From: Escherichia phage LF82-19
Sequence record: PV660457
DNA length: 52,748 bases
Reading direction: 5' to 3' (one strand)
Shown one piece after another: positions 4,249 to 42,015 of this stretch. The notes beneath the pieces were generated by a model, which worked only from the letters and a program-made list of their open reading frames with translations, did not search any database and had not been told where the DNA came from. How positions within the stretch are numbered: the first letter of the stretch is position 1; each line of letters starts with the position of its first letter. A program made the translations under genes and the position numbers.

Positions 4249-5375
4249 AAATGACCACTAAACAACGCTATGATAGCGCACCAATCAAGGCACGATTCGA
4301 TTCAAACGGATATCTTCATGATGAGCCAATCATCGCGCGAATCGGCATTCAATCGTACATGAAACCAGATGGAACCATGCAGCGTGAATTTCGCCCGGCT
4401 AGCGAGGTATTCAGCGAGAAGTCAATGAAGTCTTTTCAAGGGATGCCGATTGTTGAAGGTCACAAGGAGATCACCGTTAAGAACGCGCGAGGTGAGGTTG
4501 TTGGCGCGGTGAGCGGAGCGGCGCGCCGTGACGGAATCGGCTTGCTGTGCCCGATCGTAATTCACGATGGTGAATCAATCGAAAGCGCCAAACGAGGCGA
4601 TGCTGCTGAATTATCCGTAGGCTACAAAACAAACGATATTCATCGCGCCGGGTGGGGCAACGTGGTTACTGGTGAGTACGTATTCAAAGACGATGCGGAA
4701 ATGATGGAGAAGATTTTCCCCAGCGGAACCACGATGAGTGACGAATGGGAAGAGTTCGACGTGCTTCAAACAAACATCGTGCCCAACCACATCGCGAAGG
4801 TTCACAAAGGCCGCGCCGGAATCGCTCGTTTAAACCTTGACGGCTCCGAGGAAATCAAGTACGATTCAAGCGTTGACAATCAACCATCAAAGGAAAATGT
4901 TATGACCGTTAAAATTAAGATCGACTCCGCAGAAGTGGAAGTAACACAGGATGTGGCAAACCACATCGAAGCGCTGAAGGCAACCGCAACGGCAGCCAAA
5001 ACAAAGGCTGATACTCTGGAAGCAGAGCGCGACTCACTGAAAGTTAAGGTTGACGGCCTCCCGGCACTGATTGAAGCCGCGATCGCCGAAGCGAAAACAA
5101 AAGCCGATGCAGAAAACGAAATCAAAACTTTCGCCACTGAAATTGGCGTTAAGTGTGACGGCCTGGATAACAAAGCGATTAAAGTTGCAGTTATCAAAGA
5201 GGTGTTAGGTATCGACGCAGCAGAGAAAAGCGATGCTTATATTGATCAGTCATTTGAAATCGCGCGCGATTCTGATAAGATGGCGGCTAATCGCGTTAAA
5301 ATCTCCGGCTCTAACGGCAAGGAAGACGGCGCTGATACTGGCATCCCTGATGCTCAGGCTCGTTTCCGCAAGTAA
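4245..5375 (+). CDS. prohead protease / scaffold-like protein
   Basis: 376 aa; globular N-terminal half, C-terminal Ala/Lys/Glu-rich coiled-coil-like region typical of scaffolds; upstream of capsid genes. Confidence 0.45.
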   Translation: MKMTTKQRYDSAPIKARFDSNGYLHDEPIIARIGIQSYMKPDGTMQREFRPASEVFSEKSMKSFQGMPIVEGHKEITVKNARGEVVGAVSGAARRDGIGLLCPIVIHDGESIESAKRGDAAELSVGYKTNDIHRAGWGNVVTGEYVFKDDAEMMEKIFPSGTTMSDEWEEFDVLQTNIVPNHIAKVHKGRAGIARLNLDGSEEIKYDSSVDNQPSKENVMTVKIKIDSAEVEVTQDVANHIEALKATATAAKTKADTLEAERDSLKVKVDGLPALIEAAIAEAKTKADAENEIKTFATEIGVKCDGLDNKAIKVAVIKEVLGIDAAEKSDAYIDQSFEIARDSDKMAANRVKISGSNGKEDGADTGIPDAQARFRK

Positions 5376-5433
5376 TAAAACAAGCGGCTGAAATATGCCG
5401 CTTCACTCTCTCTGAAGAAAAGGAAAAATAATC

Positions 5434-21143: not shown

Positions 21144-21176
21144 CAGCCACATCAACCACAACTGAGGAATAAAGTG

Positions 21177-22232
21177 ATGAATCCAACAAGACCTGAATCA
21201 GATTTTTTCTGGTTCACCAGCGATAAAATGCCGAACGATTTTTACCACGACAAAGAGGCATGGACTTTTGATTTCGTATCAGGCTCCAGCCTTTGCGACA
21301 TTCACCAATCGTCACCCGCTTCATGGTTCTTCGCCAAAAACGAGATCACAAAGGCGCTTGAGTTTGGTACTCAGTCACACACCAACTTTGAATCGAAGTC
21401 GCTGTTTGATGCAACGTATCGACGCGCACCAGCCCCGGAAGACTTCGAAAACTTGATTACGTCTCAGGCAGCGCTGGCTACGAAGTTGAAATCATTCGGC
21501 CTGACTGGTACAAGCGGGAAGCAATATCCAGAGCTGATCAAAATGATGGTTGATTGCGGTGAAGATCTTAACGTGTTGTGGCTTATTGATATGATCGCAC
21601 AGTGCCAGGCTTGGGCTGATGGCGTTGAGTTGGTCAAGGCTGAGGATTACGACAAGTGCAAGATGATGCGCGCCGTTCTGGAATCAGTGCCGGAATACGC
21701 AATGATGATGGAAAGCCCAACGGCAATGCACGAGCTTTCATTGTTCGGAAAGATCAGCGGCGTTGACGTAAAAGTCAGACTTGACTACGTTGACACGGTT
21801 ACTGATCCAAACCTCATTCGTCATTTTGGGTACGATCCAGAGCTACACCCTGAAATCATTGTGATTATGGACTACAAAACGACGAGCAGCGCCAACCCGG
21901 CAGATTTTGACCGAAAGGCATTCGATCTTGGGTATTATCTGAAGATGGCATTGCAGCGTGATTTATTCGTCAAAGTGTACGATGAGAAGCGCCCCGTTTG
22001 CTTGGTTCTGCTTACACAGGAAAAGAAAGAGCCATTCTTGCCACTTGGAAGGCCAATGACGCGCGAGCAGCTTCTTTTAGGCCGCAAGCAGTATATGGGT
22101 GTCATTCACACTTACTCGATCTGCAAGGAATCAAACGTTTGGCCTGGCTATGCAAACGGCGCTCCTTTCGTTAGCCTTGAAACGCCTGACTACATCAAGC
22201 GCCAGCATAAGGATATTTTCGGCGGAGAGTAA
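21177..22232 (+). CDS. PD-(D/E)xK-type exonuclease (putative recombination exonuclease)
   Basis: ATG 21177 with RBS GAGGAA; D ... IMDYKTT motif resembles D-(D/E)xK; adjacent to annealase and SSB. Confidence 0.45.
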   Translation: MNPTRPESDFFWFTSDKMPNDFYHDKEAWTFDFVSGSSLCDIHQSSPASWFFAKNEITKALEFGTQSHTNFESKSLFDATYRRAPAPEDFENLITSQAALATKLKSFGLTGTSGKQYPELIKMMVDCGEDLNVLWLIDMIAQCQAWADGVELVKAEDYDKCKMMRAVLESVPEYAMMMESPTAMHELSLFGKISGVDVKVRLDYVDTVTDPNLIRHFGYDPELHPEIIVIMDYKTTSSANPADFDRKAFDLGYYLKMALQRDLFVKVYDEKRPVCLVLLTQEKKEPFLPLGRPMTREQLLLGRKQYMGVIHTYSICKESNVWPGYANGAPFVSLETPDYIKRQHKDIFGGE

Positions 22233-22311: not shown

Positions 22312-22971
22312 ATGCGAACTTCAGAAAGTATTATCAATGTTTCAAAGGCTCTCATCGAGGCGAAAAAGAAATTTGCCATCGCCAAAAAATCCGGTTTTAA
22401 CAAACACCTCAACTCCCATTATTCAAACCTGACGGATGTATTGGAGGCGATCGAGCCAGCGCTGAAAGAGCTTGATTTGATGGTTATTCAGTCAAACCTT
22501 GAAAGCACGACAGATAAGGTTATGCACATCGAAACGCTGATCCTTCATACATCCGGCGAATGGCTTGCATTCCAGTACAACATGCCTATAGAGAAAATCC
22601 AGGCTCAGGCATACGGCTCAACAACATCATACGGGCGACGTTATGCACTTTGTGCCGCGCTCAGCATCACTCAGAGCGACGACGACGCAGAGATCGCGAA
22701 ACGCACCGCGTCGGATTACAAAAAGCTGGTAGCAGATTGCAACGATATCGAGGCGCTTGGAACCATTTACCAAAGTGCCAAGCAATCACTCGGAGCGGCA
22801 GAGTGGAAAATTGCAGAGGAGCATTTGCGCAAACGCAAAGCAGAATTGCAAGCCGGAACGGCGCGAGGATTTAACCCACCTCAAAAGCAGGAAGCGCCAA
22901 AGAAACAAAATCAGGTTGAAGAGAAGCCACAACATCCGGTAGACTCTCAAAACATCGAAGACTTTAACTAA
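22312..22971 (+). CDS. single-strand annealing protein (ERF-like, putative)
   Basis: 219 aa between exonuclease and SSB; YGRRYAL segment; Lys/Gln-rich C-terminus. Confidence 0.45.
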   Translation: MRTSESIINVSKALIEAKKKFAIAKKSGFNKHLNSHYSNLTDVLEAIEPALKELDLMVIQSNLESTTDKVMHIETLILHTSGEWLAFQYNMPIEKIQAQAYGSTTSYGRRYALCAALSITQSDDDAEIAKRTASDYKKLVADCNDIEALGTIYQSAKQSLGAAEWKIAEEHLRKRKAELQAGTARGFNPPQKQEAPKKQNQVEEKPQHPVDSQNIEDFN

Positions 22972-23012: not shown

Positions 23013-23498
23013 ATGCCGCACATCATCACAGGTGAGATCAAAAAAGCCCCGTACACCAAAGACGGAAGCAACAATAACGGGCGATGGAAAATGTACATTG
23101 TCGATCTGAGTGAGCGCATGAAAGTGCGCAACCCTGACACACAGGCCGATGAAGTTGTTTACACAAACTACAAGGCAACCTTCTTTGCAAAAGAAAACGT
23201 CATGCAGTGGTACGATGAAGCGTTCCAGGTTGGCAAGGTAATCAGCGTAACGTGTGACACGCTGCAAATCACCAGCCGAGATCACAACGGCAATACGTAT
23301 CTTACGGCTGAAATGATCCGGCCTCAACTGACCTTCAGCCAGCGAGAGGCTCAGCAGCAGGGATGGGGGCAACCACAGCAGCCGCAAGGCAATCAGCAAC
23401 AAAGCCAGCACAGACCACCACAGCAGCGACCACAGCAGCGACCACAGCAGCAACAGCCACAGCAGGGAAATCAGTTTGACGATGACATTCCATTCTGA
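23013..23498 (+). CDS. ssb: single-stranded DNA-binding protein
   Basis: C-terminal DDDIPF acidic tip, the E. coli SSB-type tip, preceded by Gln/Pro-rich linker; OB-fold-sized N-terminal domain. Confidence 0.7.
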   Translation: MPHIITGEIKKAPYTKDGSNNNGRWKMYIVDLSERMKVRNPDTQADEVVYTNYKATFFAKENVMQWYDEAFQVGKVISVTCDTLQITSRDHNGNTYLTAEMIRPQLTFSQREAQQQGWGQPQQPQGNQQQSQHRPPQQRPQQRPQQQQPQQGNQFDDDIPF

Positions 23499-23509: not shown

Positions 23510-23535
23510 AAAGGAGCCTTTCGGCTCCTTTTTTA
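23510..23535. terminator. bidirectional terminator between ssb and tail fiber
   Basis: AGGAGCC-tttc-GGCTCCT then TTTTTTATTT. Confidence 0.55.
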
Positions 23536-25752
23536 TTTCAGCAATAACGACTCAAGTTTAGCAAGGCGCTCTTCCATTTCCTCCATTCTGTTACCCATGT
23601 AAACCATAGCACAGGCCATATCAGTAAGCATGACGTTTGAATCAAGAGCTAGCGTATCGTCCTTAAATCCAGTCTCGATCTGCCTGGCAACGTACTCCTC
23701 ACCATTCTCGTTGACTCCGATAACATCTTCAAAGATCGGAGCGCCAGGGACTACTTTCACATACTGACTATCAACTTTATTCAAGTCCTGAGCAATCAGA
23801 CCGAATCTCTGTGTGTCAGATCCCTTATACTTGAACATGGTTGGGAGCCACTGCATTACGCGATCATAGCTCTCCTTTCCTTCGGTGTATTTGATATCCC
23901 ACTTAAGATCCCGGTCAGACGTTGGCGCTTTCTGGAATGTATACCCCCCATCCCATCCTCCACCCTGACCCCATGAGATAATATCTGATGATGGTGCATG
24001 GAATTCAAATCCGCGATGGTACGCACCATCACCAAGCATCTTAATTACTGCGCGAGGCCATCCGTTGTTCCCGCTAGAAATCATACCAAGAGAGGTATTC
24101 ATTCGATACCCGCCAGTTGATGTGGTTGCCCCTGAGATCAATGAAGCATATCCGGCATCATTACCCGTTACATCACCAGCAAAGAACGTACTCCCCATGT
24201 AATCATTTGGCTGCGCCCAACCTCCTTGAGTTAACTTACCAAGAAACCCCCTTGGAGAAGATATGTGACCGCCGTATGAGTTTATGAATTTAAACTCCTT
24301 CCAGTCACTTCCTTGGTTGTTCACTCCGATCTTGAAGTGATCAATATCAGTGCCACTACCGCGAACCCCCCCAATCTGCCAGTAACCAGAGTACCAGTTA
24401 CCTTGAACCAGGTTAACCCAACTATTAACAGAGCCATCACCAGCAGCGTTTTGAATCAGGATGTTTTTGTTTCCGCCACTCTGAGTTGAAACAACGATCG
24501 ATTTACCCTGCTTTGCCTCTACGTTTCCGTTTGTTGCAACCAGAGCGCCGCCGCTAATCGTTCCGACGGCTGTCAGCGATGCAACTCCGGTAATGTTCCC
24601 CGCCTCATCAAACTGATAGTAGTTCCCCTTTCCTCCAGCCGTGTTTGCCGTGTGAATCGTTGTCTTTACAACGCCGCCTTGTAGTTCATTGTAAAATCTT
24701 GAGTTTGATTGCAGCGTTGCGCCGTCAGCAGAAAGCCTTTTACTCTCAATCAGCCCCCCACTAGTTGCTGAGCCAAGTGTTGTAGCCTCCACGCCTCCAA
24801 ATCTCACCGCTTGACCCGAGCCGATACCAAGATTGTTTCTTGCTCCGTCAGCAGTTGTTGATCCAGTGCCACCAGATCCGATAGGGATCGGGATTACATT
24901 TCCGTTACTATCCTGCCACTGGAAAATCCCATCATCGCCAATCGTCAGCCTTTTTGTTCTATCTGGCGTGCTAATGTAGTTACGCGTTCCAATGTGGCGC
25001 AGCCAGTCAAGATCAAGGTTCGTCCTCGCGGCTTGTACGTCAGTAAGATCAGATAGGTTATTTGCCTTCTTTAGCTGTTCGTCAGGGTTAGCCGTTGCTG
25101 CGCGGTCTGCTTCAGCCTTGGCTCGTGCTGCATCGTCACGAGCGGCGGCGGCAGATTGCCCGGCGCTGGTTTCGCTGTTTGCTGCATTCGTCTCGCTTAC
25201 CCTGGCGGCATCCTTGCTGGCTCCGGCTTGGGTTGCGGCAACTTCGGCGGCAACGCGTTGCTGATAAGCTTGCTGGTTCTGGCTTCCGGCCTCGCTTGCA
25301 CTTTGTGCGGCGGCGTTCTTGCTTGCCTCAGCTTCGTTTGCGTTAACTTCAGTACGATCAGCATCAACGCGAACGGCAGACTGAAGATCTTTCAGCTCTT
25401 GCAGGTTAAAGTTCTTGAAGAAATCCATAGCCTCCTCGATCACAGTTTCCTTGCTTTGGTAGTAGCGCAGAGTTTCAGCCACATCTTGAGCAAGGCCATC
25501 AACAGTGATTGAGTCATGCAGCAGGATTACATAGTTCGTACCATCCGGCACAACTGCATCATCCGTTTGGATCGCTCGCATTTCCGTGTCACTCACGATC
25601 GCGGAAATAGTAACCAGCGTTAGTGGTTGAGTTAAAAACACCATCGTTGCCCCAACGCGAATCAGAGACAGCTTGTCTTGCCATTTCGTATCAACGCCAG
25701 TTACAACGCCGTTAGCGGCCAATCCCGCCGTTCCTCTACGATAAATCGCCAT
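23533..25752 (-). CDS. tail fiber with C-terminal peptidase S74 intramolecular chaperone domain
   Basis: C-terminus DRDLKWDIKY ... GLIAQDL ... LAKLESLL typical of the autocleaving chaperone domain of fibers/endosialidases; Gly/Ser/Thr-rich beta-like middle; start at ATG 25752. Confidence 0.75.
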   Translation of the reverse strand: MAIYRRGTAGLAANGVVTGVDTKWQDKLSLIRVGATMVFLTQPLTLVTISAIVSDTEMRAIQTDDAVVPDGTNYVILLHDSITVDGLAQDVAETLRYYQSKETVIEEAMDFFKNFNLQELKDLQSAVRVDADRTEVNANEAEASKNAAAQSASEAGSQNQQAYQQRVAAEVAATQAGASKDAARVSETNAANSETSAGQSAAAARDDAARAKAEADRAATANPDEQLKKANNLSDLTDVQAARTNLDLDWLRHIGTRNYISTPDRTKRLTIGDDGIFQWQDSNGNVIPIPIGSGGTGSTTADGARNNLGIGSGQAVRFGGVEATTLGSATSGGLIESKRLSADGATLQSNSRFYNELQGGVVKTTIHTANTAGGKGNYYQFDEAGNITGVASLTAVGTISGGALVATNGNVEAKQGKSIVVSTQSGGNKNILIQNAAGDGSVNSWVNLVQGNWYSGYWQIGGVRGSGTDIDHFKIGVNNQGSDWKEFKFINSYGGHISSPRGFLGKLTQGGWAQPNDYMGSTFFAGDVTGNDAGYASLISGATTSTGGYRMNTSLGMISSGNNGWPRAVIKMLGDGAYHRGFEFHAPSSDIISWGQGGGWDGGYTFQKAPTSDRDLKWDIKYTEGKESYDRVMQWLPTMFKYKGSDTQRFGLIAQDLNKVDSQYVKVVPGAPIFEDVIGVNENGEEYVARQIETGFKDDTLALDSNVMLTDMACAMVYMGNRMEEMEERLAKLESLLLK

Positions 25753-25775
25753 TGTCAACACCTCTTGTTAGTAAA

Positions 25776-25851: not shown

Positions 25852-26787
25852 TTACTCCAGTCTGTCAATAAGAGATTGCGGATCGTATAGCCTACGCTGC
25901 ATCCCCTGGCGGAAATTGTCATTGTTCGGCAAGATTACCCTCAGATCCCGATCGTCAGCCATGCACAGGGTTTGGTAATCGGTAGACAGGCAAGCAACGC
26001 GAAGCTCACGATCTCCTTTGTATCGCCAAGCCACAATTTCAAGGTTCTCGGGCGTGAAAGTGACCCATACTTCCTGATTGGTTGCCGTCGCTACGCGATG
26101 CCCTTCGATTATGTCGCACACCAGATAAATAGAGCCAGTGCCAGCACCAAGCTTAACAACTGAACCGCGAGAATGATCGCGAGCCATAAAAGAATATTCC
26201 CCACTTTCATTAACAAACAGGATATTACACATTTCATCATCCAATCCTTCCGGTTGAGCGAGATAGCACGGATATGCATGAATAAGCGATTCTCCGCCAT
26301 TCTCGCGAGGTTTTACGCCTACAATGAATGATTCATCCAATAGGCACTCATAAACGCTTAGAGGCGTGCTGGCTCGCAATTCAGTGCGCTCCATAACAGC
26401 CATACAGGCATCGTGATCAACTTGCTTGCCAATATTGGCATCGGTTGTTCTCGCTATGCGCTTGTAAGCCTTCACGCGGTACTCTTGCGGAACCTTGCCC
26501 AAGAAGCGCCCCAGGATGTTAACCGCCTCGCTGTATGGCTCACCAGTCAGCTTCATGACCCAGCCAATGCCTTTATCGTTACCGCATGCGTTACAGATCG
26601 CCCCGCCGTCACCCTTCGACTCAAGGTTATCAGTCCAGCGGAAGCGGTCATTGCCGCCACAGTTTGGGCATGGCTGGTGTTTGCCATTGAATACGGTTGA
26701 GGGAAGAGCGCATATTGACTGCAACGCCTCGCGCCATAATCCTTTCATGTATGGCAAAACTTCCTCTTTCTGGTACATCATCGACAT
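25852..26787 (-). CDS. DNA primase (zinc ribbon + TOPRIM-like)
   Basis: N-terminal CPNCGG ... CNACG four-Cys zinc ribbon; followed by acidic-motif catalytic region. Confidence 0.6.
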   Translation of the reverse strand: MSMMYQKEEVLPYMKGLWREALQSICALPSTVFNGKHQPCPNCGGNDRFRWTDNLESKGDGGAICNACGNDKGIGWVMKLTGEPYSEAVNILGRFLGKVPQEYRVKAYKRIARTTDANIGKQVDHDACMAVMERTELRASTPLSVYECLLDESFIVGVKPRENGGESLIHAYPCYLAQPEGLDDEMCNILFVNESGEYSFMARDHSRGSVVKLGAGTGSIYLVCDIIEGHRVATATNQEVWVTFTPENLEIVAWRYKGDRELRVACLSTDYQTLCMADDRDLRVILPNNDNFRQGMQRRLYDPQSLIDRLE

Positions 26788-26842: not shown

Positions 26843-27301
26843 TCATTGATTAGCTTTTCGTGCTTTCAGTGTTTTCCAGGATGGTTGCTCCGGCTTGGTT
26901 TCTAACTCTTCCTTTCTCACCACGCGCAGCATGTGACGCTTTTTGCATCGGACTGTTAGCGGCTTGCCGTTGCCGTCGAATGACAGATCAGGGCGGCACC
27001 ACGACGCGCGGAAACCTCCGCCATTTCGTTTATATGCGTTGTGCGCCAGTTGCGCGCCTCGCGCTGAAATCATGCCGCGTTGCCGCCACTCATAAACAAC
27101 CTGAAGCGAAACGCGCAATTCTTTCGCCAGCTTTGCAGGTGAGCCGTAGAATTCAAGGATGGTATCTAATCTAGCCTTAAGCCCGGCCTTTACTTCGTCT
27201 CGTAAAACATAGTAACCTACTGGACGTTTTCGGCGCTTAGCGTCACTTCCGCGCTTCGTTCCATTGTTCCCATTAAGCGTGCGTTTATCTACGGTTTCCA
27301 T
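26843..27301 (-). CDS. HTH DNA-binding protein (Cro/YdaS-like, putative regulator)
   Basis: AKLAKELRVSLQVVYEWRQRG HTH-like segment; basic N- and C-termini; divergent from helicase promoter. Confidence 0.5.
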   Translation of the reverse strand: METVDKRTLNGNNGTKRGSDAKRRKRPVGYYVLRDEVKAGLKARLDTILEFYGSPAKLAKELRVSLQVVYEWRQRGMISARGAQLAHNAYKRNGGGFRASWCRPDLSFDGNGKPLTVRCKKRHMLRVVRKEELETKPEQPSWKTLKARKANQ

Positions 27302-27314
27302 AATTATTCCTCAA

Positions 27315-27356
27315 TAGCATTTTTTGTTAAAACTGGATTGTTGAGGCGTGTATTAT
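27315..27356 (+). promoter_or_regulatory. palindrome TAGCA-N5-TGTTA plus -10 TATTAT
   Basis: TAGCATTTTTTGTTA, 21 nt, TATTAT; upstream of helicase operon. Confidence 0.5.
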
Positions 27357-27393
27357 ATCAATCAAACGAACGAACATCAAAGGCATTAACACG

Positions 27394-29463
27394 ATGAAAA
27401 TCAAGAGCATCAAGAAGCAGATTGAGGAGTTAGGCGAGGATAAGATCGCAGAGCTTCAAAAGAAATTCACTTTTGGTGACATTGTTCCTTATGCGTATCA
27501 GTGCGTCATGTACGACGAGATCGCAAAGCGCATTTCCGCATACAAACACCCATTCTTTGTTAAGGCTTCCGTGTCGGCTGGCAAAACAGTTGGGTTTGCC
27601 ATGGTGGCGGCGCGGTGCAGGGAAATGACTAGCGCAAAGTTTCCAAAGGGTTTATCAATGGCAATCCTCGCTCGCCAGGGTGAGATCGTATCTCAGGATA
27701 GCCAGGAGCTAACAAACTTCGGCGTGCCGAATAGCGTTTACTGCGCCGGGCTTGGTACTAAATCTGCATACTTCCCGATCGTCGTTGGCTCTGAGGGTTC
27801 AGTTGCAAACGGGCTTTTCAAGGCTCTCGGAGACTTCGCGCCAATGGTTGTCGGCATCGACGAATGTCACCAGGTGGATTGGGAAGACCTTGCAGACTCG
27901 ATCGAGAAGAACGAAAGCTATGAGGAAATGAGCAGACCAAAGGATGAGGCTTACATGATCAATGGCGAAGTAGTCGATCGCGGGTTGAAGATATCAAGCC
28001 TCATGGAAACCCTGGGAACAGTTGCACCAGGTGCCGGGCGCTCTCAGTACACGATAATCATTCGTGAGTTGCAGCGTCGATGCCTGGAAGTTCACGGAAA
28101 GGAACTACGCATATTCGGCATGACTGGTTCAGAGTTTCGCGGCACAACTCCGATCCTTGTTGAGAATATGAAACTCAAAGGCTTCTGGCGCGAGCAGGTA
28201 ACGAACATTGATACGAACTACCTCATTGAGTTTGGCTCGGTTGTTCCAACCGTCTTCGGCTCAACTGGCGGGTTAGGCTACGATCTGGAAGAGTTCAAAG
28301 CGTCAAGCGAAGATGGAACAAAAGACTTTGACGCGAAAGTAATGAAGAAGATGGAGGAGAAGATCCACAAGGATGCTTCCATGACGGCAAGAATTATGGC
28401 GGCGGTTGTGGAGGAAGCGAAGAAGCGAAACGGCGTTCTAATTACTTGCTCAGGGCAACGACACTGTAAAGAGGCGGCTAGTTACCTGCCTGAAGGCTCA
28501 ACGTATGCGATCATTACTGAGAAGACCGGAACGAAACAGCGCCAGCAAATCCTTGATGATGCAAACCAGGGAAAGATAAAGTACATCTTCCAGGTTGTGG
28601 CATTGACGACTGGCGTTAACGTGCCGTTTTGGGATTTCTCCGTGATACTCCGTAAGATTGGCTCTCTCACATTGCTGATACAGTTGCTTGGGCGCGGAAT
28701 GCGACTTTTAAAGGCGTGGCAAATCGCAATGGGGATGGTGAAGACAGATCACCTTGTTTGGGATTTTGCCGGAACTATGGACGAATTAGGCCAACTTTAC
28801 TTTGACCCGATTCTTGAGGAAGCTCAGTATCAACGCCGTTTCGACTCGAAGAAGGAGCCTAAAAAATGCCCTATTTGCGGTCATGAAAACAGTTTCTTTG
28901 CTCGTCGCTGTATCAGTCGGGATTTGAACGGAAACAGATGTGAGTATTTCTGGAAGTCGAGAACGTGCGAGGATCAGGTTGACGATCGAACCGGGAAAGT
29001 TATTGTGAAGGGTTGCGGTGTTCAAAATGATGTTGTAGCTCGAATCTGTAGGGGTTGTGATGCTAGCCTAACAGATCCCAACGCCAACTTAACCGGGAAG
29101 GCGTACACAAAAAACGACTGGTGCCAGGTTCTCAGCTTTGAGGTTGGGCTTACCAAAAACCAGACCGGGATCATTTATAAATATCGCTTGCGTGATATGC
29201 TCGGAGAGGAGTTTAACGCATACGAGAAGTTTTTCCCTGAGTCTCAGGCTCAGGTATGCCACACGATATGGAAAACAAAAGGCGTGCTTCCACACGTTCA
29301 CGATTCGAAAGTGGCAAAGCTTATGGCAGCATACAGGAGCGCGCGCCTGATCTTACAAAACGCGCACCACATCGCGCACCCGGTACGGGTTACGCATCGC
29401 AAAAACGCAAAGGGCGAAGATATCATTTCGCGCAAGGACTTCGGTCTTAATGAGGGCTTATGA
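27394..29463 (+). CDS. DExH-box SF2 helicase with C-terminal Cys-rich zinc-ribbon cluster
   Basis: Walker A SVSAGKT, DECH box, helicase C-terminal region, then CPICGH ... C ... C ... GCG ... CRGC cluster. Confidence 0.75.
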   Translation: MKIKSIKKQIEELGEDKIAELQKKFTFGDIVPYAYQCVMYDEIAKRISAYKHPFFVKASVSAGKTVGFAMVAARCREMTSAKFPKGLSMAILARQGEIVSQDSQELTNFGVPNSVYCAGLGTKSAYFPIVVGSEGSVANGLFKALGDFAPMVVGIDECHQVDWEDLADSIEKNESYEEMSRPKDEAYMINGEVVDRGLKISSLMETLGTVAPGAGRSQYTIIIRELQRRCLEVHGKELRIFGMTGSEFRGTTPILVENMKLKGFWREQVTNIDTNYLIEFGSVVPTVFGSTGGLGYDLEEFKASSEDGTKDFDAKVMKKMEEKIHKDASMTARIMAAVVEEAKKRNGVLITCSGQRHCKEAASYLPEGSTYAIITEKTGTKQRQQILDDANQGKIKYIFQVVALTTGVNVPFWDFSVILRKIGSLTLLIQLLGRGMRLLKAWQIAMGMVKTDHLVWDFAGTMDELGQLYFDPILEEAQYQRRFDSKKEPKKCPICGHENSFFARRCISRDLNGNRCEYFWKSRTCEDQVDDRTGKVIVKGCGVQNDVVARICRGCDASLTDPNANLTGKAYTKNDWCQVLSFEVGLTKNQTGIIYKYRLRDMLGEEFNAYEKFFPESQAQVCHTIWKTKGVLPHVHDSKVAKLMAAYRSARLILQNAHHIAHPVRVTHRKNAKGEDIISRKDFGLNEGL

Positions 29464-29879
29464 TTACTGACAAGGGCGATTATCTTGAATATTACACCCC
29501 TGATAAGGGGTGTACCCTGAAGGAAGAGACTCACCAGGTTAACGGCGTTTCGTGGCTAAAGTACCACTACCCAAACCTGATGTTTTGGCACACGGTCAAC
29601 GAGGGGCAGAAGCACATAAACACAGCCCTAAAAGATGAGCAAGCCGGGCTTAAGAAAGGTGTCAGCGACTTCGTATTTCTGATTGGTCATTTCGATCGGA
29701 AATATTGCTTTGGGGCTATTGAGCTGAAGCGCACCAACAAGAGCGGAAAGTACAAGGCATCACCAGTCAGTAAGGAGCAGAAAGCTTTCCTTCTCGGTGT
29801 GCGTGAACGTGGGGGGTTCGCGGCTGTGGCTTACGGATTCGAGGAGTTGAAGAAAGCCGTTGAGGACATGATGAAATAG
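29460..29879 (+). CDS. VRR-NUC-like nuclease
   Basis: 139 aa with D ... SDFVFL ... IELK PD-(D/E)xK-like motif; overlaps helicase stop. Confidence 0.55.
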   Translation: MITDKGDYLEYYTPDKGCTLKEETHQVNGVSWLKYHYPNLMFWHTVNEGQKHINTALKDEQAGLKKGVSDFVFLIGHFDRKYCFGAIELKRTNKSGKYKASPVSKEQKAFLLGVRERGGFAAVAYGFEELKKAVEDMMK

Positions 29880-31746: not shown

Positions 31747-32883
31747 ATGTCACTGAAGAAAATCACCGACGAGCAGTTAAACGCCGAGCGAGAGTCGGGT
31801 AAAACTTACCGCCAGATCGCGGAAGAGTACGGAATGAACATACGCACCGTCGAGGCTCGCGGCGCACGCCTGGCTAAGAAAGGTTTCGGTCACGGTAACG
31901 GCGATGCATCGCGATTTGTTCCAGAAGGCTTCATGGTTAAGGGCACATCAACCATGCACCGCGCGAACGGAGAGGTTATCGTTAGCTGGACGAAAACCAA
32001 TCAGGATCATGAGAAGTTAGCCGCCATGCTTGAGCACGCGATCGAGGCGTTTTGCGTTGAGCTTCCACGCGCAGCCGCTACACCTTCCAACGTTGGTGAG
32101 GTGATGGAGAACCAGCTCGCGCTTTATCCTGTATTCGATCTGCATATCGGTGCAATGGCTCATAAGCATGAGTGCGGCGAGAACTACTCAACCGATATTG
32201 CCGAGAAGGTTTTGGGCGATTTCTTCAAGTACGCTGTGAACGTTGCGCCGAAGGCGAAGAAGGCGGTTGTGCTGGTTGGCGGTGACTACCTCCACTCTGA
32301 CGGCCTGGACGCTGTAACACCCGCAAGCGGTCACGTTCTGGATCAGGACTCACGTTACGCTAAGCTGGTTCACGTTGCCATTCGCTCACTCCGTCGCGGC
32401 GTTGCGCTTCTGCTTGATAAGCATGAAGAGATTGAGATCCAGATTATCGAAGGCAACCACGATCAGGCGGGTATGATTTGGCTACGCGCTGCAATGGCGG
32501 CATACTTCGAAGATGAGCCGCGCGTCACGGTTGACACATCGCCTATGATCCTTCACCGTACCAAGTGGGGCAAAACGCTGTTAGGCTACACTCACGGTCA
32601 CACGATGAAGAAAGCAGAAACCCGCCTCCAGGCGCTGGCTACTGACTTCCGTTCTGAGTTCGGCACGAGTGAATTCGTTTATACTCACTCAGGGCATTGG
32701 CATCACCAGACGCTTACAGAGCACACCTTAGGCATTGACGAGGTTCACGGTCAGTTAGGTGCCAAAGATGCGTATGCGGCTCGCGGTGGATGGCGCTCAT
32801 ATCGCCAGGCGGCGGTAATTGTCTATGATAAAGAATTTGGCGAGGTAGGCCGATTCGTTTATCGTCCTCAGATGAGCAAATAG
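31747..32883 (+). CDS. HTH domain fused to calcineurin-like metallophosphoesterase
   Basis: N-terminal TYRQIAEEYGMNIRTVEARGARL HTH; then DLHIG, GGDYLHSDG, EGNHD, GHTH, GHWHH metallophosphatase motifs. Confidence 0.6.
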   Translation: MSLKKITDEQLNAERESGKTYRQIAEEYGMNIRTVEARGARLAKKGFGHGNGDASRFVPEGFMVKGTSTMHRANGEVIVSWTKTNQDHEKLAAMLEHAIEAFCVELPRAAATPSNVGEVMENQLALYPVFDLHIGAMAHKHECGENYSTDIAEKVLGDFFKYAVNVAPKAKKAVVLVGGDYLHSDGLDAVTPASGHVLDQDSRYAKLVHVAIRSLRRGVALLLDKHEEIEIQIIEGNHDQAGMIWLRAAMAAYFEDEPRVTVDTSPMILHRTKWGKTLLGYTHGHTMKKAETRLQALATDFRSEFGTSEFVYTHSGHWHHQTLTEHTLGIDEVHGQLGAKDAYAARGGWRSYRQAAVIVYDKEFGEVGRFVYRPQMSK

Positions 32884-35024: not shown

Positions 35025-36611
35025 TTACCCCAGCAAGCGTGGATTAACGTAAATCTTATCACCGATCAGGCAAGTGTAATTCTTCTCGTCAAGCATCGGC
35101 AGCAAGTGATCTTTGATTCGTGTCATTGTTCCGGCCTGGCCTTCGAATGGTCGAACCTTGCGCGCGGCCTCGTAAAGCGCCCGAAGACCAACAACGCCCT
35201 TCCCCTGCTTTCCGCTCTTGATCAGCAAGTCAATAAGCTTGTTCATTTCTGCTGAATCGCCAGCGTGCCCGGCAGACGACGCGGAAGAAAGATAGGTCTT
35301 GCTCAGCTCGTTAAACATGATCACGGCCTCCTGCATTGTGTCAAGCTCAATCTCTCGACTCTTCGGCGCATTGCTTCCGTTTGGTGAGAACCAGTTACGG
35401 ATCACATGCAGAACCGACGCGATACGAATCGCCTGTTTATCGAACTTGCCCAGCGCACCGCGTAACATGGTGTGCGAGTATTTCCCGCCGTCTGCCAAGT
35501 GTGGCTCCATCGCCTGGCGTGCGTTGTTAAGGTACTTCATCGCGCTCTTGCTCACCGTGAGCTTAACGTCAACCTCACTCATGATGGCGTGTATCAGCTT
35601 GAAGTAATCAGCTTTCAGGCCGCCGTCAATAGGCTCGTAAGTTGACTCGCCATTGTCATTCACGAAAACACGCTCACCAAGGAATGACTTCTCACGAACC
35701 AGCAAGAAACGCTCAGAAACACCGATACCGCGCGCACCTGCATTCATGATCGCGTTGATTGTCTCGTCCTGCGCGATAACCGAAATACAACCCATAGCCA
35801 CGAATGACATGTTGTTATCAGCGTTCGCACGAGCGATAGACACGTTCCCTGCATCCCATGCTTTCAGCACAAGCTCGCTGTTTGTCTTCTTCGAACCGTC
35901 ACCATACGTCATGCCCAACAGGCTGTTAACGGATGTCGCTTCGTCCGAGATCACAGCGAAGTTGCCTTGACGGTTGTTAATGCGTGCCAAGCCTTCAGGC
36001 GTGGTATCTGAAACAGGGAAAACGATATCGCAAAGGCGCTCAAGCTTCTCTTCAAGATCCTCTTTCTCCTCAAACAGCGAGGCCATTTCAGATGGCGCTT
36101 TCTCCTGTTTCATTTCCTTCGCCAGCGCAGACAGTTTGGCGAGAATCTTTTTACGCTCACGCTTACGAGCCTCGTTGAGTCGCTCAGTCTCCGCGATCAT
36201 TGGCGCGATGGATAGCGAGTTGATTGCGGATTTCCCCGTTGATGGTGGCTGACTGGTTACAACGTAGAGCGCAGTTGGTTGTTGCGTTCCGTGATAGTCA
36301 ACCGTGAACCTACCCAGCATGGCGGCAGACACGCAACCTACAAAGTGCATATAGGCTGAAGACTCAGGGAATTGAACCGATCTCGCGGCGTTGCGTGAGA
36401 GCTTGCCGACCACATCACTATCGTTGCCCAGGGAAATAACAGGATATTTATCATTACCTGAATCAATCTCTACCGGAGCCTTCCAGAAGGATTGGGATTG
36501 ACGATATCCATTCGCATTTATGGCAACGCGGAGCGGCGGCAACCCTTCGGCCTTTGCAACCTCGATCACTTGTTCCGGCGAAAGTTTATCATCATTGAAA
36601 ATATCGAACAT
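35025..36611 (-). CDS. P-loop NTPase, putative replication helicase/initiator
   Basis: Walker A-like PPSTGKS; 528 aa; in replication gene neighbourhood. Confidence 0.45.
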   Translation of the reverse strand: MFDIFNDDKLSPEQVIEVAKAEGLPPLRVAINANGYRQSQSFWKAPVEIDSGNDKYPVISLGNDSDVVGKLSRNAARSVQFPESSAYMHFVGCVSAAMLGRFTVDYHGTQQPTALYVVTSQPPSTGKSAINSLSIAPMIAETERLNEARKRERKKILAKLSALAKEMKQEKAPSEMASLFEEKEDLEEKLERLCDIVFPVSDTTPEGLARINNRQGNFAVISDEATSVNSLLGMTYGDGSKKTNSELVLKAWDAGNVSIARANADNNMSFVAMGCISVIAQDETINAIMNAGARGIGVSERFLLVREKSFLGERVFVNDNGESTYEPIDGGLKADYFKLIHAIMSEVDVKLTVSKSAMKYLNNARQAMEPHLADGGKYSHTMLRGALGKFDKQAIRIASVLHVIRNWFSPNGSNAPKSREIELDTMQEAVIMFNELSKTYLSSASSAGHAGDSAEMNKLIDLLIKSGKQGKGVVGLRALYEAARKVRPFEGQAGTMTRIKDHLLPMLDEKNYTCLIGDKIYVNPRLLG

Positions 36612-37132: not shown

Positions 37133-37175
37133 ATAATAACAAAACCCGCCGAAGCGGGTTTAACAAAAAGTGCTA
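37133..37175 (-). promoter_or_regulatory. palindrome plus terminator-like hairpin plus -10 TATTAT
   Basis: on minus: TAGCACTTTTTGTTA-AACCCGCTTCGGCGGGTTTTG-TTATTAT; same 40-nt element as 48965-49007. Confidence 0.5.
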
Positions 37176-37865
37176 TTTGTAACGGTTGTACTGGAAGACG
37201 GCGCGAGCGAATCCGCGCGGAGTTAGGGAGCGGAGTTGCTTAGTCTTCGCAGACTTTCCGCCGAGGAACTTCCAGCCCCAAAAGAAATGCAAGCCTTCCT
37301 CTTTTGGTAATGGTGCCTTCTCTGGCTCGCGGAAACCGTTGCCATGCCAGATGCAAGTTTTTTTCGTGTAGCCGTCTCGCAGTGGCATTTTGGGGTGCCA
37401 GGAGCCTTCACGCGCATCGACGTATTGCCCGAAGTCACGAGGATGGAAATAGAATTTAGGCTTGCCCAGGTTTTCCGGCTTTGACATTGCCCCTACCGGG
37501 TTTTCAATCATCCACGGGATCTGGTAGCGTTCGCCAATCTCAATGACAACCTTTGCACACTCAAGCGCATATTTCATTTCGGCGTCGTCTCTCTCGTGCT
37601 GCGCGCCAGATTGGGCAAACAGAGTGCAATCCGGGAAGCCAAAAACGATATCAGGCTTGGGCAACCCCAGGATCTCAGCCTTTGTGATGAAATCCTTATC
37701 AATCCACGTATTCACATATCGGATATTTGGGTGATTCATCTTCACGGCGTACTCGCCATGATTGCCGGAGTCAGCGTTGAAGCATATCACCTGACAACCA
37801 ACCTCAGCCCAAGGCAATCCCATAATGCCGGAGCCGTCAAACAGCGACCATACAACACGCTTCAT
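37173..37865 (-). CDS. C5-cytosine methyltransferase-like protein (short)
   Basis: motif I LFDGSG, motif IV FPDCTLF (PC), motif VI ENP (ENV-like); only 230 aa, no obvious target-recognition domain. Confidence 0.55.
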   Translation of the reverse strand: MKRVVWSLFDGSGIMGLPWAEVGCQVICFNADSGNHGEYAVKMNHPNIRYVNTWIDKDFITKAEILGLPKPDIVFGFPDCTLFAQSGAQHERDDAEMKYALECAKVVIEIGERYQIPWMIENPVGAMSKPENLGKPKFYFHPRDFGQYVDAREGSWHPKMPLRDGYTKKTCIWHGNGFREPEKAPLPKEEGLHFFWGWKFLGGKSAKTKQLRSLTPRGFARAVFQYNRYK

Positions 37866-41582: not shown

Positions 41583-42015
41583 GAATGAGGGTGAGGAGGC
41601 GATCAGATCTGATCCCGAAACTTTTTCCCTCACCGCACGATTTGCTAATGAATTGTCGTGCCTGTAGTTGTATGTTGTGTTTTACGTTTTCCGTGGAAAT
41701 CGGTACGCGCTACTACGCGGAATAACAATGTTATGCTTTATATATAGATATATAAGTATATATAAAATAAAGGTTTTTTATTATATATATTATCTAATTT
41801 CATAACACTTTATAACGTGTTGTGTTTGTTCCGCCGGACGCGGAGTGATTGATATGTTTCGCGGCCTATTTATGCCTATATTGTGAAATATGGGTAGGGG
41901 GATATATACCCCTCCGAAATCCGCAACAAACGCTTAATACGCACTACAACCCAGCAGGAATGCACCATGTAGAGGAGATTTTGTTGATAATGGCAATAAT
42001 CGACACAAATTAATC

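Follow-up and report, generated by a model that had tools for sequence, protein, structure and literature searches.

What do two overlapping genes, one for a large helicase and one for a small nuclease, do for the phage that carries them, and do their products act as a pair? The question was raised by positions 27,394 to 29,879 of Escherichia phage LF82-19 (sequence record PV660457), the window being the whole stretch of DNA that was analysed, 52,748 nucleotides in length. This DNA is the genome of a T1-like (Drexlerviridae) phage, and Escherichia phages LF82-10, LF82-11, LF82-12 and LF82-40 are 100% identical to it across the helicase-nuclease region; in their GenBank records both genes are labelled "hypothetical protein". 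Homologues were found in hundreds, with E values of 0 to 1e-214, and nothing here is thus a chance feature. The two genes are a standard pair of T1-like phages, real but ordinary. Both open reading frames, encoding 689 and 139 aa, have exact coordinates in the sequence. The features referred to below are as follows.

26843-27301, - strand: HTH regulator gene, divergent from the helicase gene
27302-27393, no single strand: intergenic region from which the HTH regulator gene and the helicase gene diverge; promoter-like hexamers occur on each strand
27394-29463, + strand: RadD-like SF2 (DExH) helicase/translocase, 689 aa, called from sequence, profile and predicted fold
27565-27588, + strand: Walker A (motif I), ASVSAGKT, aa 58-65, read from the sequence
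27859-27870, + strand: motif II, DECH, aa 156-159, read from the sequence
27883-28041, + strand: insertion of about 50 aa specific to the clade, within RecA-like domain 1 (aa 164-216), a BLASTP gap opposite RadD
28408-28704, + strand: Helicase_C (RecA-like domain 2), aa 339-437, Pfam PF00271
28867-28941, + strand: predicted zinc ribbon 1 (C492, C495, C506, C516), equivalent in the family alignment to RadD C384, C387, C411 and C425
28966-29058, + strand: predicted zinc ribbon 2 (C525, C541, C552, C555), equivalent in the family alignment to RadD C434, C437, C448 and C451
29080-29460, + strand: RadD-type C-terminal domain, aa 563-689, aligned to RadD 457-559
29452-29463, + strand: putative coupling junction, with a Shine-Dalgarno GAGGG at 29452-29456 and an ATGA overlap at 29460-29463, read from the sequence
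29460-29879, + strand: stand-alone VRR-NUC nuclease, 139 aa, called from Pfam PF08774, conserved residues and predicted fold

The earlier note on this DNA had described a DExH helicase with Walker A, DECH and helicase-C motifs, and all of these were found to be present. The Helicase_C match lies above the Pfam cutoff (E 1.1e-10), and within that region motif V reads LTTGVNVP and motif VI reads QLLGRGMR. Residues G63, K64 and T65 of Walker A are invariant in the T1-like alignment, as are D156, E157, C158 and H159 of the DECH motif, and in the distant alignment G63 and K64 still reach at least 90% conservation, while G407, Q430, G433, R434 and R437 are invariant even there. Further invariant motif residues are Q36 and T244-G245-S246. 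The protein therefore carries SF2 motifs 0, I, Ia and II to VI in two RecA-like domains, as is expected of the RadD family. Its best match among PDB sequences by phmmer was RadD (6jde, E 2.3e-34), the NCBIfam heli_RadD_YejH profile matched it with an E value of 3.4e-53, and BLASTP against E. coli RadD gave 24% identity over RadD residues 7-559 (E 3e-41); it also falls in PHROG 16, "DNA helicase". An AF2 model (pLDDT 83) submitted to Foldseek returned RadD 7r7j first (E 1e-31, with the next family at 2e-11), in an alignment spanning about 700 columns and twenty orders ahead of XPB or any other SF2 helicase. The RadD C-terminal domain was recovered as well, since the alignment runs to residue 559 of the 586 of RadD and to position 565 of the 573 of the NCBIfam RadD profile. 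Judged by sequence, the phage protein is thus a full-length RadD (YejH) homologue of the same architecture. It is not an equivalog or orthologue, because it reached 181 bits on NF053632 against an equivalog cutoff of 720, and it may have diverged in function from RadD; other phage versions scored 197-420 bits on that profile. The insertion behind the DECH motif is folded in the AF2 model (pLDDT about 76-90) and was found in the relative P0124 but is missing from P0136, P0150, P0164 and E. coli RadD, and no Pfam family matched the fragment aa 163-262, which covers most of it.

The ResIII model gave 19.7 bits against the whole helicase, below its cutoff of 22.5, and 23.0 bits against the N-terminal 189 aa alone. 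This weak match could be taken to mean that the pair is aimed at the host, breaking down its DNA or overcoming a defence system, the more so as some homologues are labelled "type III restriction endonuclease / res subunit", those in a Brucella phage and in IME_EC2 being annotated "type III restriction endonuclease", and as VRR-NUC domains serve as toxins in T6SS effectors (PMC9635880). ResIII, however, is a generic model of the SF2 N-terminal domain, the full-length architecture is that of RadD, no restriction-type specificity or methylase partner is linked to the genes, and these sit in a replication/recombination module and not among early host-takeover genes. We consider such a host-directed function to be highly improbable.

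It was also claimed that a zinc-ribbon cluster of at least eight cysteines in CxxC-type pairs had been appended to the helicase. The number was right, there being exactly eight clustered cysteines in the C-terminal region, but the pairing was not, as only 492/495 and 552/555 form a true CxxC and the remaining four are single. The conservation that the earlier note had called for as a check was found: the eight cysteines are invariant in 41 T1-like homologues (50-92% identity), and each of them is kept in 50-54 of 55 distant full-length relatives plus E. coli RadD. In family alignments of 55 and 47 sequences they share columns, one to one, with all eight RadD zinc ligands, which were assigned from the 7R7J crystal structure (PMC9049331). 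Because of this correspondence the cluster, on the alignments, is the double zinc-ribbon module integral to RadD, is predicted to bind zinc, and cannot be called appended, being a tandem ribbon with the RadD-type C-terminal domain behind it. When the protein was aligned to RadD pairwise by HMMER and BLAST, ribbon 2 looked one ligand short and C506 looked extra; this reading was rejected, since the 55- and 47-sequence alignments show all eight cysteines corresponding, and it reflects a register error around lineage-specific inserts. One such insert, of 13-15 aa, lies between C525 and C541, so that the first knuckle of ribbon 2 is C-EDQVDDRTGKVIVKG-C here, as opposed to CPxC in RadD and many relatives.

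As to what the ribbons are for, the earlier note had offered a primase-like or a DNA-recognition module. The first did not hold up: PF08273 (Zn_Ribbon_Prim) had no match to the helicase at E <= 0.01 and hit only the true primase, a separate gene at 25852-26787 that is divergent from the helicase gene (E 1.7e-13). The second gains support from homology, as the zinc-finger and C-terminal domains of E. coli RadD bind branched DNA (PMC9821108), and a mutation of a single zinc ligand, C437A, abolishes RadD function in vivo (PMC9821108; PMC9049331). Nor did the C-terminal region behave as a separate module in a domain search of the kind then proposed. When aa 470-689 were run by phmmer against 1.84 billion representatives, 86 proteins were matched at E <= 0.001, in every full-length case at the C-terminal end of a protein of 500-930 aa, the rest being short fragments; a search of genome contigs with the C-terminal region alone found nothing, and the divergent family alignment contains no stretch conserved well enough for such a search.

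The second gene was also correctly recognised at the outset as a 139-aa VRR-NUC nuclease overlapping the helicase gene by ATGA. It scored 36.6 bits against Pfam VRR_NUC (PF08774; cutoff 23.8, E 5.4e-9), and its predicted catalytic residues E22, D70, E88, K90 and Q107 are invariant in 35 homologues, giving it the E-PD-ExK motif with the stabilising glutamine that has been described for VRR-NUC resolvases (PMC4103454). Since a phmmer search of the nuclease against PDB sequences gave noise only, its link to solved VRR-NUC structures was found by fold comparison. The AF2 model (pLDDT 85) adopts a restriction-endonuclease-like alpha/beta fold, and its best Foldseek match was psNUC (4QBL), with a target-normalised TM score of 0.71-0.75 and an rmsd of 2.0-2.8 A; 4QBN and 4QBO were matched as well. 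psNUC is a dimer that cleaves Holliday junctions (PMC4103454), and all three stand-alone VRR-NUC proteins tested (psNUC, stNUC and saNUC) are dimeric resolvases. The phage enzyme would thus belong with psNUC among the stand-alone VRR-NUC nucleases, and by analogy with these three proteins we infer that it forms a dimer and cuts four-way junctions.

[quoted passage not shown] The two products might form a stable complex like XPB-Bax1 or FAN1, in which the ATPase opens flaps, forks or bubbles, a monomeric VRR-NUC cuts them and Holliday junctions are not resolved. The repair of damaged phage DNA and the restart of stalled forks are examples of what such a complex could do. The gene overlap would suit an equimolar output of two partners, and the nuclease model has a 26-residue linker between beta1 and beta2, containing a helix, at the place where FAN1 has a dimer-blocking insertion. 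Dimeric psNUC, however, has a similar beta1-beta2 extension and still cuts Holliday junctions, the FAN1 matches to the nuclease model are far weaker (E about 0.2), and the uniform behaviour of the three tested stand-alone proteins argues in the same direction. A complex of this kind seems to us improbable, and dimeric junction cutting of the psNUC type is preferred.

At the junction of the two genes the letters run GGC TTA TGA, the nuclease ATG lying at 29460, and the scan gave no convincing terminator-like site on the + strand before it. Related loci were searched for with the T1-like alignment and E. coli RadD as seeds. In 78 of 80 T1-like IMG/VR loci the helicase gene is followed by the VRR-NUC gene, and among these 78 the spacing is -4 in 20, -1 in seven and +1 or +2 in 21; the remaining 30 junctions have less certain or larger spacings, two of them with an HNH gene inserted. 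In those two of the 80 T1-like relatives an HNH homing endonuclease gene splits the pair, and strict co-translation is therefore dispensable. It is thus plausible, judging from the ATGA and the GAGGG, that the two genes are translationally coupled here, as was claimed, but coupling is not a fixed feature of the family.

Gene order was more constant. The order helicase then VRR-NUC was also found in Murrayvirus and in Brucella Tb-like, Yersinia and Vibrio phages, while no such nuclease was found within 3 kb of cellular radD in any of 80 loci, or alongside radD of E. coli K-12. The linkage of nuclease and helicase is conserved across five phage lineages and is phage-specific. In related phages the pair has been annotated "DNA repair helicase" and "Holliday junction resolvase" (PMC11447400; KLB19).

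Upstream of the pair, the intergenic region contains TTAAAA-18-TATTAT at 27327-27356 on the + strand and promoter-like sites at 27380-27352 and 27330-27303 on the - strand, all of them as consensus matches only, and the same divergent regulator/helicase layout appears in the annotation of Klebsiella phage KLB19. This neighbourhood bears on another possible role, in which the SF2 protein is an initiation or fork helicase that works with the divergent primase, in origin opening or at forks, and the nuclease is an unrelated neighbour. A paper on TLS (PMC11447400) proposed such a role for Gp56/Gp58 of that phage, with lambda O/P as the analogy, and T1-like phages encode no DNA polymerase. Primase and helicase genes are adjacent and divergent here, in KLB19 and in Murrayvirus IME_EC2, and are not far apart in a Vibrio phage. 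Against this, RadD, the closest characterised relative, has shown no detectable unwinding or stand-alone branch migration (PMC8887467, PMC9821108). The idea that the protein is replicative as the only helicase of the phage is weakened by a separate gene at 35025-36611 for a DUF3987 helicase-like protein, which is a better replicative candidate than the RadD-like helicase, and in Yersinia phage vB_YenM_25 a "replicative DNA helicase" is present besides the RadD-like gene. Linkage to the nuclease in five phage lineages would also be unexpected of a chance neighbour. We regard the replication role as unlikely. An origin inside the helicase gene, an idea with precedents in the GATC clustering of TLS and the iterons of lambda, was considered and rejected, which counts against that role too: GATC occurs at 8.2 per kb in the gene compared with 6.6 per kb genome-wide and is no outlier, and no iteron-like repeats or unusual GATC clustering were seen in or beside it.

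Homology, architecture, conserved zinc ligands and catalytic residues, the shared operon and the phage-specific pairing together lead us to the reading that we favour, namely that the two genes probably form a branched-DNA processing module, with a RadD-like motor and a junction nuclease acting on recombination or replication intermediates. The likeness to replication-fork processing systems drawn by the earlier note is consistent with this, since a role in branched-DNA processing is the best reading of the pair. Elsewhere the genome encodes a RecE-like exonuclease, Erf and an SSB (23013-23498) whose product ends in DDDIPF. In the proposed scheme, joint molecules would be made by the exonuclease, Erf and SSB as the DNA replicates by way of recombination and forms concatemers, and the zinc-ribbon and C-terminal module would attach the RadD-like ATPase to the branch point. 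The DDDIPF tail of phage or host SSB may recruit the ATPase, which would spend ATP to move or remodel the branch, after which a VRR-NUC dimer would cut the junction and leave unbranched concatemers to be packaged. Of this scheme we infer the substrates, the order of action, the SSB recruitment, the nuclease dimer and any physical contact between the two proteins. RadD itself binds the SSB C-terminal tail and its ATPase is stimulated by SSB, although published accounts disagree on whether the RD1 pocket or the C-terminal domain is used. The RD1 residues of RadD proposed to bind SSB found no convincing counterparts in the phage protein: judged by eye on the BLASTP alignment, R21 falls opposite S48 and R49 opposite R76, and R76 is not conserved in the T1-like alignment.

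Several observations speak against the branched-DNA module. The help that RadD gives to strand exchange requires RecA (PMC8887467, PMC9821108), and the phage has Erf and no RecA-like recombinase; the helicase carries the 50-aa insertion and a 30-aa N-terminal extension; and divergent pairing with the primase gene fits a replication role equally well. A narrower version, in which the pair is a dedicated RecA-independent machine for branch migration and resolution, brought in by the SSB tail and partnered by an annealing protein of the Erf type, is offered only tentatively. If it were true, the pair could show what the RadD family natively acts on and what its motor does, both long sought, since the motor has a nuclease partner in at least five phage lineages and none beside cellular radD. 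With its conserved nuclease partner and a self-contained recombination toolkit of exonuclease, Erf and DDDIPF-tailed SSB, the phage could serve as a simpler system for studying RadD-type motors at DNA branch points. The practical value lies mainly in annotation: the first gene can confidently be called a RadD-like helicase and the second a VRR-NUC junction nuclease, and the zinc ligands of the one and the catalytic residues of the other have been assigned.

Compared with E. coli RadD (6JDE, 7R7J, 8H5Y/Z), the phage helicase has the same architecture from end to end, with RecA-like domains 1 and 2 (motifs 0-VI), two four-cysteine ribbons and the RadD-specific C-terminal domain. Unlike RadD, it has an N-terminal extension of about 30 aa, the insertion of about 50 aa after DECH and the insert of 13-15 aa that splits the first knuckle of zinc ribbon 2, and it does not have the 13-aa insert that RadD carries in zinc ribbon 1. 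Its gene shares an operon with a VRR-NUC gene, whereas cellular radD does not, and lies in a genome that encodes Erf and not RecA. RadD acts on recombination intermediates and speeds strand exchange (PMC8887467, PMC10238739). The nuclease resembles psNUC (4QBL), saNUC (4QBN) and stNUC (4QBO) of Pennell et al. 2014 in being single-domain and in its E-(P)D-ExK-Q site, and its model superposes on psNUC with the structured beta1-beta2 linker included, but identity to psNUC is only about 20% and the phage enzyme has an extra N-terminal beta-hairpin of about 20 aa. Drexlerviridae core genes such as TLS Gp58/Gp59 and KLB19 MVRG_030/031 are direct orthologues (50-92% identity) with the same gene order and neighbourhood and nothing substantive different. 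Drexlerviridae annotations for the two products read "DNA helicase / putative DNA repair helicase RadD" and "VRR-NUC / Holliday junction resolvase". RuvAB-RuvC, RecG, and T4 UvsW with endonuclease VII can be likened to the phage pair by functional analogy only, since RuvB is an AAA+ protein, RuvC is RNase H-like and endonuclease VII has an HNH-type (beta-beta-alpha-Me) site, families unrelated to those of the pair. The logic proposed here would nevertheless be the same as theirs, in which an ATP-driven motor acts at the branch point and a structure-specific resolvase then clears the branches before packaging.

The helicase and nuclease genes of Escherichia phage LF82-19 were found in the ORF listing of the window exactly where an earlier note had placed them, and the ATGA overlap claimed for them is real, the helicase gene ending in ...GGC TTA TGA and the nuclease ATG lying at 29460. 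The basic observation on the pair was correct.

27302-27393, divergent intergenic region upstream of the helicase gene, promoter-like hexamers (scan)
27394-29463, + strand, helicase ORF, 689 aa
29452-29456, + strand, Shine-Dalgarno GAGGG of the nuclease gene (from the sequence)
29460-29879, + strand, nuclease ORF, 139 aa

No convincing + strand terminator-like site was found in a scan upstream of the helicase/nuclease junction. The gene content of the 52.7-kb window is that of a T1-like siphophage. The 2.5-kb helicase-nuclease region has 100% identity with Escherichia phages LF82-10, -11, -12 and -40, in whose GenBank records both genes are labelled only 'hypothetical protein', and is ~75% identical in Klebsiella Drexlerviridae phages.

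The reported helicase motifs, Walker A (ASVSAGKT, aa 58-65), DECH (aa 156-159) and Helicase_C, are all present. Helicase_C scored above the Pfam cutoff on the protein and ResIII reached it only with an N-terminal fragment; generic 'ResIII' labels are the sole support for the view that the pair may have a host-directed, restriction-like function. In a sequence search the DNA repair ATPase RadD (YejH) of E. coli was the top PDB match (E 2.3e-34; runner-up 4e-4), and heli_RadD_YejH was the sole strong NCBIfam match (E 3.4e-53), its 181 bits being well below the equivalog cutoff of 720. With RadD taken from the E. coli K-12 chromosome, BLASTP gave an alignment over RadD residues 7-559 (24% identity, E 3e-41). 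An AlphaFold2 model built from 41 homologues (pLDDT 83) retrieved crystal structures of RadD (E 1e-31 to 1e-27, ~700 aligned columns), the next families (XPB, CSB, DEAD-box) being at ~1e-11.

Eight cysteines are clustered in the helicase (C492, C495, C506, C516, C525, C541, C552 and C555); they had been described as CxxC-type pairs, which is true of two pairs, the other four being single. The RadD-ADP crystal structure contains two zinc sites, ZF1 (C384, C387, C411, C425) and ZF2 (C434, C437, C448, C451), and a C437A mutant has no function in vivo (PMC9049331). Pairwise alignments of the helicase with RadD put the middle cysteines in the wrong register. A phmmer search of 1.84 billion representatives with the C-terminal 220 aa matched 86 proteins; those of full length were 500-930 aa long and always carried the match at the C-terminus, and the rest were short fragments. 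When the 53 full-length matches, the query and RadD were aligned, the eight phage cysteines and the eight RadD ligands fell in the same columns, and their flanks could be recognised (ARRC/GRRC, RCEYFW/QCDFRF, NDVVARICRGCD/NDIAARRCRECD). An independent MAFFT alignment with RadD gave C492, C506, C525, C552 and C555 as invariant and C495, C516 and C541 as at least 90% conserved. The earlier note had staked its proposal on conservation in homologues, and all eight were invariant in 41 T1-like proteins of 50-92% identity. Together, the column matches and the conservation point to C492/495/506/516 as ZF1 and C525/541/552/555 as ZF2. Since these ligands map to the RadD zinc sites, and since RadD binds branched DNA through its zinc-finger and C-terminal domains, not its motor domains (PMC9821108), the cluster would, judged by sequence, be RadD's own branched-DNA-binding module. 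Of the roles suggested earlier, DNA recognition is thus favoured. The domain is integral to the RadD architecture, not 'appended', and a primase-like element was rejected, as the primase zinc-ribbon model matched only the separate primase gene (25852-26787).

The 139-aa protein scored above the Pfam VRR_NUC gathering score, in agreement with its proposed family. [quoted passage not shown] Superposition of its AF2 model (pLDDT 85) on psNUC (4QBL) gave a target-normalised TM of 0.71-0.75 at an rmsd of 2.0-2.8 A; the fit to saNUC (4QBN), stNUC (4QBO) and FAN1 was weaker. psNUC, stNUC and saNUC are dimeric and cut four-way junctions, and the phage nuclease may likewise be a dimer. On a rival, less likely reading, the two phage proteins may instead form an XPB-Bax1-like or FAN1-like complex that cuts flaps or forks.

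A VRR-NUC homologue lies directly 3' of the helicase in 78 of 80 T1-like IMG/VR loci, the two exceptions being a truncated contig and one without VRR-NUC within ~1 kb; 20 loci have a -4 junction, 7 a -1 junction and 21 one of +1 or +2. Two contigs carry an HNH homing-endonuclease ORF (motif ...DHINHIRDDNRIENLRLV...) exactly between the genes (L067, ~4939-5405; L085, ~4987-5432), and the junction therefore tolerates interruption. RadD-like helicases followed by a small nuclease were also found in Murrayvirus IME_EC2, a Brucella Tb-like phage and Yersinia vB_YenM_25, and, with one small ORF between, in Vibrio phage 1.173.O. In these four distant phages RadD was the best NCBIfam match of the helicase (197-420 bits), and the small proteins matched Pfam VRR_NUC or the T1-like VRR-NUC profile. 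That T1-like profile matched all four distant loci, while a control set of 80 cellular radD loci, each from a different species of Enterobacterales, gave no match within 3 kb; the E. coli K-12 radD neighbours are rsuA and rplY. Conservation of the pair, and its restriction to phages when set against enterobacterial radD, argue for a shared pathway.

The surrounding genes include the following.

21174-22232, + strand, RecE-like PDDEXK exonuclease (DUF3799)
22312-22971, + strand, Erf-family annealing protein
23013-23498, + strand, SSB, ending ...QFDDDIPF
23533-25761, - strand, tail-fibre-like ORF, 742 aa
29950-30663, Dam methylase
31747-32883, + strand, SbcD/Mre11-like exonuclease, 378 aa (PHROG 704, 'DNA repair exonuclease')
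35025-36611, - strand, second helicase-like gene, DUF3987 type (PHROG 2373, 'DNA helicase'; Pfam DUF3987, E 3e-39)
37173-37865, - strand, second methyltransferase

The exonuclease and Erf genes, a recombination pair that the phage itself encodes, immediately precede the SSB gene, for which Pfam gave no match at E <= 0.001. The phage SSB contains a long Q/P-rich linker and has the same DDDIPF end as the E. coli SSB acidic tip, which RadD binds. Because of this identity it could draw in SSB-client proteins of the host and perhaps also the RadD-like helicase. The tail-fibre-like ORF separates the SSB gene from the primase gene and is on the strand opposite to the recombination genes; a tail-fibre ORF in the same region of a relative has a Pfam 'chaperone of endosialidase' domain, according to that relative's paper. 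The PHROG 704 protein has a weak N-terminal match to a sigma-70 region 4-like helix-turn-helix (E 0.007).

It was already proposed for the related T1-like phage TLS that the helicase acts with the adjacent primase in replication initiation. This is less likely, because the helicase is kin to RadD, its nuclease partner is conserved and the genome has a second helicase, the DUF3987 protein, which is the likelier replicative or primase-associated one. Neither iterons nor exceptional GATC clustering was found within the helicase gene. Genome-wide, GATC is commoner than expected (6.6 against 3.9 per kb), and three sites lie 5 nt apart at 41601, 41606 and 41611. RadD works on branched recombination intermediates and speeds strand exchange, but unwinding by RadD alone has not been detected. 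On the best-supported reading, the phage recombination system would make branch points, which the RadD-like motor would bind and move or remodel and a VRR-NUC dimer would then resolve before packaging.

Related phages were already annotated with a 'DNA repair helicase' or 'putative DNA repair helicase RadD', and with a 'VRR-NUC domain-containing protein' or 'Holliday junction resolvase'. To this we add the one-to-one match between the eight cysteines and the ligands of both RadD zinc sites, the pairing across several phage lineages that is missing beside enterobacterial radD, the phage SSB with its DDDIPF tail, and inserts specific to the phage lineage. Compared with E. coli RadD, the phage helicase has a ~30-aa N-terminal extension, a ~50-aa insertion after motif II (aa 164-216; 27883-28041, + strand) and, where RadD has CPQC, a lineage insert of 13-15 aa between C525 and C541. 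The aa 164-216 insertion is clade-specific, predicted to be confidently folded in RecA-like domain 1, and missing from E. coli RadD and many phage relatives; a Pfam search with a fragment spanning most of it gave no family match. Like psNUC, the phage nuclease has a predicted structured beta1-beta2 linker (aa 45-70).
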